Of a stretch of DNA of 64,000 nucleotides, positions 57,261 to 58,070 are shown in pieces. The stretch spans positions 51,026,001 through 51,090,000 of the forward strand of contig OZ024741.1 in NCBI GenBank assembly GCA_964016885.1, written 5' to 3'. Each line of letters starts with the position of its first letter. The stretch's first letter is position 1. The translations under genes were made by a program, and so were the position numbers. The notes under the pieces were generated by a model, which was not told where the DNA came from, searched no databases, and saw nothing but the letters and a program-made list of their open reading frames with translations. The DNA is from Eledone cirrhosa (Eukaryota).

Positions 57261-57311
<51 letters not shown>

Positions 57312-57472
57312 TAGAATTGGAGCTCTGAAATAGCAATATATATATGAATGTATATATAATGTATTTTGCAATACACTTTATGCTTAATCAAAAGCATTTT
57401 GAAGACCGTATGCTATTGTTTTAGAGTAGTGACAAACTCACTTACTTTAATCTCAGCAAACAAGGGGAGATA

Positions 57473-57517
57473 AGCCGACAAGGCCTTGTTTCGCATTTAT
57501 TGATGCTTATCAAGGCT
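57473..57517 (-). ncRNA. Hammerhead, U3-A8 variant
   Basis: AGCC-TTGATAA-GCAT.CAATAA.ATGC-GAAA-CAAGGCCTTG-TC-GGCT. Confidence 0.82.
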
Positions 57518-57861
57518 AACTACTCCCTCCTGTCTACTGAGATCACTGATGTTATATTCTTATAGAATTCTAGTAAATAATCAGGAACTGATTTTACAGA
57601 GCGATTGCCGGTCAGGCAGAAATTAAAAATTAGAATTGGAGCTCTGAAATAGCAATATGTATATGAATGTATATATAATGTATTTTGCAATACACTTTAT
57701 GCTTAATTAAAAGCATTTTGAAGACAGTATGCTATTGTTTTAGAGTAGTGACAAACTCACTTACTTTAATCTCAGCAAACTGTATAATCAGTTCCTGATT
57801 ATTTACTAGAATTCTATAAGAATATAACATCAGTGATCTCAGTAGACAGGAGGGAGTAGCT

Positions 57862-57906
57862 AGCCTTGATAAGCATCAATAAATGCGAAACAAGGTCTTG
57901 TCGGCT
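57862..57906 (+). ncRNA. Hammerhead, U3-A8 variant (inverted copy)
   Basis: AGCC-TTGATAA-GCAT.CAATAA.ATGC-GAAA-CAAGGTCTTG-TC-GGCT. Confidence 0.8.
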
Positions 57907-58030
57907 TATCTCCCCTTGTTTGCTGAGATTACAGTAAGTGAGTTTGTCACTACTCTAAAACAATAGCATACGGTCTTCAAAATGCTTTTAATTAAGCATA
58001 AAGTGTATTGCAAAATACATTATATATACA

Positions 58031-58070
<40 letters not shown>

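Follow-up and report, generated by a model that had tools for sequence, protein, structure and literature searches.

Layout of the locus: full, partial and inverted copies of a 319-nt unit

Which machinery places a non-coding unit of retrozyme size into a genome in one and a half head-to-tail copies followed by an inverted copy? The question is raised by a locus at positions 57310-58043 of the window, by which we mean the whole 64-kb stretch of DNA analysed here. The preliminary description had combined the tandem of a retrozyme with an inversion of Penelope type, which pointed to the RT of a Penelope-like element (PLE) as mobiliser. Our analysis indicates that the locus probably arose by one recent insertion of a non-autonomous PLE, a retrozyme-sized mini-PLE, the body of which is a hammerhead-bearing unit of ~319 nt.

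Repeat comparison fully bore out the described layout. A direct repeat of 152 nt (57310-57461 and 57629-57780, 98% identity) recurs with a spacing of 319 nt, and two inverted arms of 264 nt (57336-57599 and 57780-58043) are also 98% identical. The unit was numbered in the sense of the hammerhead strand, with unit position 1 at 57628. In this sense, the left part of the locus runs leftwards, first through unit positions 168-319 and next through 1-319; the right part runs rightwards through positions 30-293. The full 319-nt non-coding unit (57310..57628, - strand) has a GC content of 34% and a fold z-score of -6.69 as compared to 100 shuffles. It is preceded by a 5′-truncated upstream partial copy (57629..57780, - strand; unit 168-319), which lacks the hammerhead and is equivalent to a pseudo-LTR. 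The inverted copy (57780..58043, + strand; unit 30-293) is 5′-truncated and tail-less. Indeed, unit positions 294-319 (57310..57335, - strand) have no counterpart in the inverted arm and form a one-sided tail of 26 nt, or of up to ~38 nt as the unit's own AT run blends into the target. The arms abut head to head, sharing a single base (57780), and TA repeats are found at both 3′ ends. On the left, a (TA)n microsatellite (57263..57309) is the likely target, with no discernible target-site duplication in the sequence. On the right, an (AT)n run (58031..58068) corresponds to the end of the inverted arm blending into the right-hand target microsatellite.

No ORF was found in the unit: once it is doubled, stops interrupt each of its six frames at frequent intervals. 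A short frame opening with ATG in helix II of the hammerhead was rejected as an ORF; it is lost in ~40% of the reads through a variant at 57495. Neither was any coding remnant found in the unit, and the RT plus GIY-YIG ORF that marks an autonomous PLE is absent from it. No further copies of the unit were found elsewhere in the 64-kb window.

A locus of this shape might also arise at the DNA level, by a satellite-like repeat duplicating locally and folding back, or be an assembly artefact, with retrotransposition playing no part. The window is rich in microsatellites and the arms are 98% alike, as such an origin would have it. However, seven sites differ among the three copies and each copy has its own changes, unlike what a collapsed or mirrored assembly would give. 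This spread over all three copies makes a mirrored assembly unlikely and favours one recent event.

One hammerhead motif per strand

The full unit contains a type I hammerhead with an extended helix I (57450..57543, - strand), with its U3-A8 core at 57513-57507, GAAA at 57492-57489 and a predicted cut after C17, at 57477. A second hammerhead, with one G.U change in helix III, is found in the inverted copy (57836..57929, + strand; core 57866-57902, predicted cut after 57902). Both cores read UUGAUAA...GAAA with a GUC triplet (57513-57477 on the - strand, 57866-57902 on the + strand), so that the U3-A8 hammerhead with a GUC site reported earlier is present in both long copies. The motif has the features of type I, that is a conserved core (U3-A8, GAAA, NUH), three helices and an open helix I. 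Helix I consists of 4 bp running into a 20-bp outer stem, helix II of 4 bp, and helix III is palindromic. The palindromic character of stem III, claimed in the preliminary description, holds for the left copy, where it is exact (CAAGGCCTTG), and not for the inverted copy (CAAGGTCTTG). U3-A8 is a known natural covariation of hammerheads (PMC3088659), and it has been reported from Schistosoma, in some 1,300 motifs akin to the Cercyon PLE (PMC4209133).

When the unit was shuffled with its dinucleotides kept, an equally good motif arose in 0 of 3000 cases and a relaxed one in 3 of 3000. In the window, nine relaxed hammerhead motifs were counted, as compared to 0-2 in 12 shuffles. An Rfam scan of the window returned no match at the gathering score; two of the 38 listed matches are to Hammerhead_HH9 and stay below the cut-off of 52, with 22.8 bits (E 0.0089) and 19.5 bits (E 0.1). 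Around 58340-58480, microRNA families of Rfam also match below cut-off; these matches were discarded as artefacts of hairpins.

The hammerhead occupies unit positions 116-152 and the partial copy begins at unit position 168, which leaves one hammerhead per strand. Therefore, no 319-nt monomer can be excised from the locus, and the two consecutive hammerhead units expected of an active retrozyme are absent from it. The notion of a working retrozyme tandem at this place finds no support, as monomer release needs two hammerheads in the same orientation. In addition, the predicted catalytic fold (-38.4 kcal/mol) lies 4.5 kcal/mol above a competing fold pairing the core with helix III; activity of the monomer is therefore not assured. 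With a palindromic helix III, the motif could act as a dimer, as has been described for hammerheads of animals (PMC4209133). A transcript across the whole locus is predicted to fold into a ~260-bp hairpin of about -487 kcal/mol, burying both hammerheads.

Other hammerheads occur in the window. A head-to-head palindrome at 58294-58526, with 114-nt arms 5 nt apart, carries two C3-G8 hammerheads (58343, - strand; 58477, + strand) and is related to an element at 27276-30441, described below, and to 2416-2559. A third, unrelated family with a long helix II is found at 57083-57149 (- strand), ~160 nt to the left of the 319-nt unit locus. Three hammerhead families are thus present within 1.5 kb around this locus. 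Further motifs were detected at 40482 (- strand) and 32569 (- strand, U3-A8).

The unit as a diverse many-copy family

Four of 16 listed sequencing runs were aligned to a permuted monomer (57380-57698): X1 and X14, which have the same organism code A, and X4 and X5, which have other organism codes. It is possible that the window derives from X1. Small shares of unit words (0.05-0.19) were seen in 10 of 13 runs; of these ten, only X4 and X5 were used. The unit was matched by 1809 of 17,142,217 contigs in X1, 39 of 8,254,286 in X4 and 3 of 3,376,751 in X5, and by 3737 of 12,467,656 RAD reads in X14. Sorted by likeness to the unit, the X14 reads number 32 at 99% or more, 568 at 95-99%, 1895 at 90-95% and 1242 under 90%. 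The 319-nt unit is a diverse many-copy family, and the retrozyme-like size that had been attributed to it is a trait of this family, seen in runs X1, X14, X4 and X5. The arms at the locus are far closer to each other than to most family members. Two exact-pattern scans of metagenome contigs gave 0 loci.

We then considered where family members end. In X1, X14 and X4, depth rises stepwise at position 57655. Loose ends at this position were found in 311 X14 reads, and their consensus finishes in TA repeats (agreement 0.6). Many family copies end in (TA)n at the place equivalent to the end of the inverted arm. Sharp X14 read ends at 57386, 57566, 57569, 57624 and 57634 were rejected as element boundaries. 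All of them lie on AATT, 57386 reaching it via a common family allele, and five of the six begin or end places listed for X14 are on AATT, the sixth being the edge of the aligned stretch. Judging from this motif, the sharp ends would be restriction cuts of the RAD library. AATT sites are present at the tailed end and at the junction, so that neither can be counted in X14. As a point against the mini-PLE reading, 91% of the aligned X14 reads continue into unlike sequence; it is possible that a real 5′ boundary lies near 57624, or that the unit branches into a longer parent.

These data bear on another explanation, according to which an autonomous PLE left only its truncated 3′ end (pseudo-LTR region) at the locus, and the period of 319 nt reflects by chance where one cDNA was cut short and joined. 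Truncated PLEs have been named as the source of hammerhead pairs on opposite strands, 100-700 bp apart, and U3-A8 cores are known in the Cercyon PLE family (PMC4209133 for both), and hammerhead stubs surround the locus (58294-58526; 57149). However, the tail-to-head junction 57628/57629 is not private to this locus. Among the 20 pieces listed, at least two bridge it with at least 31 letters per side, and both are diverged contigs from other organism codes (X4 record 14 and X5 record 17, with 8 and 5 differences from the unit, respectively). X1 records 6-8 and X4 records 15-16 cross the junction with a shorter side, and X1 depth shows no dip there. Unlike sequence was reached by 0 of the X1 and X5 pieces and by 0.11 of those of X4. 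Together with the lack of a coding remnant, these observations make a truncated autonomous PLE an unlikely source. The existence of a many-copy family and the recurrence of the tail-to-head junction in diverged contigs lead us to favour a non-autonomous mini-PLE.

The contig pieces tile a closed loop of ~317-319 nt, none of the pieces spanning the whole unit and pieces from different copies being joined. Alignment joints going back by 317-319 positions were rejected as evidence of tandem repeats because, with a permuted monomer as reference, they attest only to continuity inside the unit.

Variation in X14 was also informative for the hammerhead. In helix II, the pair 57504/57495 changes from A-U to U-A at 0.40 and 0.42 of the reads. 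In helix I, the pair 57514/57476 changes from C-G to U-A at 0.34 and 0.39. Moreover, A-U becomes G.U at 57517 (0.41) and G.U becomes G-C at 57463 (0.20). No variant at a core position was found among the 40 variant rows listed, and outer-stem changes with no partner among these rows are those at 57527 (0.08) and 57452 (0.28). Across copies, variation in helices I and II preserves pairing, as seen from matching frequencies in unphased reads. Two observations in X1 speak against the mini-PLE reading: contig depth is ~ten-fold lower over the hammerhead region than over the rest of the unit, and one contig deletes the entire hammerhead hairpin.

Insertion ends of Penelope type

Insertions of PLEs are characterized by a partial tandem, an adjacent inverted 5′-truncated copy, a tail of 30-40 bp confined to one end and insertion into (TA)n (PMC8557442, PMC3846280); the tail has been explained by two RT start sites (PMC11167929). 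The 319-nt unit locus shows all of these features. The partial tandem is followed by an adjacent inverted 5′-truncated copy, the tail of 26-38 nt is one-sided, with the tail-less end recurring in the family at 57655, and the target is a (TA)n run. Hence, tandem and inversion, previously read as two systems combined, form the ordinary structure of a PLE insertion as described in PMC8557442. The proposal of Penelope-type mobilisation itself gains support from the inversion, the one-sided tail, the TA target and the Hydra-clade remnants of the window. Hydra-clade PLEs target (TA)n and bear hammerheads; a (TA)n target is also known for Naiad and Neptune (PMC8557442).

An ORF-bearing remnant of a Hydra-type PLE at 27276-30441 served as an internal control. 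It has inverted arms of 649 nt with 98% identity, TA flanks and a C3-G8 hammerhead in each arm (27383, - strand; 30334, + strand). An extension of ~90 nt is present at its right end only, and remnants of an RT thumb and of a GIY-YIG domain lie between the arms. The occurrence of the same geometry in this second, ORF-bearing element argues against DNA-level duplication or an artefact as the origin of the 319-nt unit locus, and so does the end at 57655 next to (TA)n, which recurs in many other copies. With the private substitutions of the three copies, this makes such an origin very improbable.

Overall, four ORF-bearing remnants with Hydra-clade motifs (RWR, DKT, CxCx5C, CxxC and CxH, as compared with PMC8557442) were identified in the window, at 21946-24340, 27929-28836, 42163-43222 and 61886-62628. 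The first is a near-complete RT plus GIY-YIG ORF within an element at 21687-24492 that has a 192-nt inverted copy upstream; a frame change near 23930-23979 and a stop in the endonuclease part interrupt this ORF. The last two are Hydra-type RT/GIY-YIG fragments on the - strand, that at 42163-43222 being interrupted by microsatellites. Judged by eye, the PLE ORFs of the window resemble the Hydra-1_Obim protein of Octopus bimaculoides. Such likenesses, together with known repeats, give the impression of a cephalopod host. A Pfam search with these ORFs gave no matches, and an ESM Atlas search led to RT-related eukaryotic clusters. No autonomous element sharing the sequence of the unit was found in the 64-kb window, and the exact short motifs of the unit were not found in the supplement of PMC8557442.

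Repeats of other kinds were recorded in the window. At 5423-8729, a 615-nt unit forms 5.4 head-to-tail copies that are 99.9% identical, and TA runs flank the array; neither a hammerhead core nor a long ORF was found in this repeat, which may be another very young PLE-mobilised concatemer. A Mariner-like transposase remnant (HTH_48, HTH_32) lies between 113-nt inverted repeats at 48700-49609. A family of dispersed SINE-like repeats of ~200 nt occurs at 15640-16368, 38813-38997, 39804-39967 and 60970-61186, and is partly tandem with a 219-nt period.

Proposed mechanism and nature of the template

What is known of PLE biology suggests the following route for insertion of the mini-PLE. A PLE RT/GIY-YIG protein, in all likelihood supplied by a TA-targeting Hydra-clade element, would act in trans and recognise an RNA longer than one unit. 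This clade is the likeliest enzyme source because of its (TA)n targeting and its hammerheads, yet no DNA is shared between its members in the window and the unit. The endonuclease would nick the TA run, and reverse transcription would begin at either of two sites ~26-38 nt apart, which would account for the one-sided tail. One cDNA would copy 471 nt, that is 1.5 units, and a second one 264 nt, after which both would be joined head to head. The longer cDNA would pass through the hammerhead cut site, implying a template that was uncut or religated. It stops at unit position 168, within the 3′ arm of the long stem. The hammerhead would be maintained by selection at the level of the family, probably for the processing of source transcripts. 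The present copy is most likely a dead end, with a long hairpin as its read-through RNA.

Both a linear read-through RNA and a circle fit as template. A circle would be expected for a classical circRNA retrozyme, in which arrays located elsewhere, with at least two same-strand hammerheads, would release a 319-nt monomer; once circularised, this monomer would be copied by a PLE RT for more than one round, yielding 1.5 units. The length of the unit and its GC content of 34% fit animal non-LTR retrozymes, which measure 150-450 bp and are low in GC (PMC7229834). The hammerhead has full size, an extended helix I and pair-preserving variation, the contig pieces can be followed round a closed path of ~317-319 nt, and circles have been proposed as an explanation of PLE tandems (PMC4209133). 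However, the locus has a single hammerhead per strand, none of the four breakpoints (unit positions 30, 168, 293 and 319) falls at the cut site 152/153, and the predicted circle is only 58% paired. Furthermore, an anole PLE did not need hammerhead cleavage in vitro (PMC11167929) and eight of nine predicted Xenopus dimers were uncleaved (bioRxiv 10.64898/2026.07.22.740005). The reads and contigs do not have the length to reveal a pair of hammerheads on the same molecule. The classical retrozyme route is a tentative reading. As no breakpoint coincides with the cut site and no two-hammerhead array is visible, we give a circular template about a third of the weight.

A possible spliceosomal intron in the unit

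A possible spliceosomal intron of 121 nt spans the tail boundary (57325..57445, - strand). Its GUAAGU donor at 57445 is 32 nt downstream of the predicted cut site, and its UUGCUAUUUCAG acceptor, ending at 57325, lies within the tail. An intron across the pLTR/tail boundary is known for Penelope and Chlamys-3_cRei (PMC8557442). GURAGU and the pyrimidines are preserved among the listed X14 variants, and an acceptor-like site is also present in the extension of the 27276-30441 element. A comparable pair of donor and acceptor arose in 248 of 3000 shuffles. The 121-nt intron is a weak lead, put forward as a hypothesis only.

If spliced, the unit could hold the complete regulatory module of Penelope within 319 nt, namely hammerhead, intron and two RT start sites. 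It would then be a circRNA-forming parasite of Hydra-clade PLEs, giving circles of 319 nt by ribozyme cutting and of 198 nt by splicing, the smaller one by joining the donor downstream of one hammerhead to the acceptor upstream of it. We consider this regulatory-module reading improbable. If true, the insertion ends would be direct structural evidence of PLE enzymes copying animal retrozymes.

Comparison with known systems

The closest parallels to the mini-PLE are endonuclease-positive PLE insertions, especially those of the Hydra clade (Craig et al. 2021, PMC8557442; Arkhipova et al. 2013, PMC3846280), for which the same layout, tail, (TA)n target and type I hammerhead in the repeated end are described. 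In contrast to Hydra-clade PLEs, the locus has no ORF, its whole repeating body measures 319 nt and no sequence link to the described elements was found. In particular, the Hydra-1_Obim hammerhead is of C3-G8 type and differs in sequence from the U3-A8 hammerhead of the unit. Non-autonomous Chlamys PLEs such as MRC1 (PMC8557442) are likewise ORF-less and form pLTRs and head-to-tail insertions. They differ in being green-algal, in mostly lacking canonical hammerheads and in their 3′ similarity to a known autonomous family, for which no equivalent was found with the unit.

With animal non-LTR retrozymes (Cervera and de la Pena 2020, PMC7229834; Li, Clavereau and Pollet 2026, bioRxiv 10.64898/2026.07.22.740005), the unit shares a non-coding, low-GC make-up of 150-450 bp, a type I hammerhead, a head-to-tail junction, many copies and coexistence with PLEs. 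It departs from them in that the locus has one hammerhead per strand and not the two units asked of an active retrozyme (bioRxiv 10.64898/2026.07.22.740005). Inverted copies or tails are not described in the main texts of these two reports; retrozymes are argued in the preprint to be non-autonomous PLE derivatives. As to the ribozyme, the core covariation is that of other U3-A8 hammerheads (Perreault et al. 2011, PMC3088659; Schistosoma Cercyon, PMC4209133). A palindromic helix III is common to the unit and other PLE hammerheads (PMC4209133), whereas helix III is longer than in minimal PLE hammerheads and a 20-bp outer stem is added.

Each ingredient of the locus is already published, according to the sources consulted: U3-A8 PLE hammerheads, the retrozyme-PLE link, non-autonomous head-to-tail PLEs and opposite-strand hammerhead pairs. 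A search of the literature, on cephalopod retrozymes among others and outside most subscription journals, Repbase/Dfam and the supplementary families of the preprint, yielded no description of the 319-nt family. Within the same scope, no account was found of a retrozyme-sized unit whose ends combine an inversion with a tail. In itself the locus is unremarkable, and adds one more member to a known group of parasites of animal genomes. Its interest lies in the ends: in the sources considered, the retrozyme-PLE link has so far been based on co-occurrence and terminal-repeat homology, to which ends of PLE type add anatomical support. The 319-nt element also offers a convenient minimal substrate for studying PLE RT recognition and the role of the hammerhead. 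Overall, the element behaves as a non-autonomous PLE and matches animal non-LTR retrozymes in size and composition.
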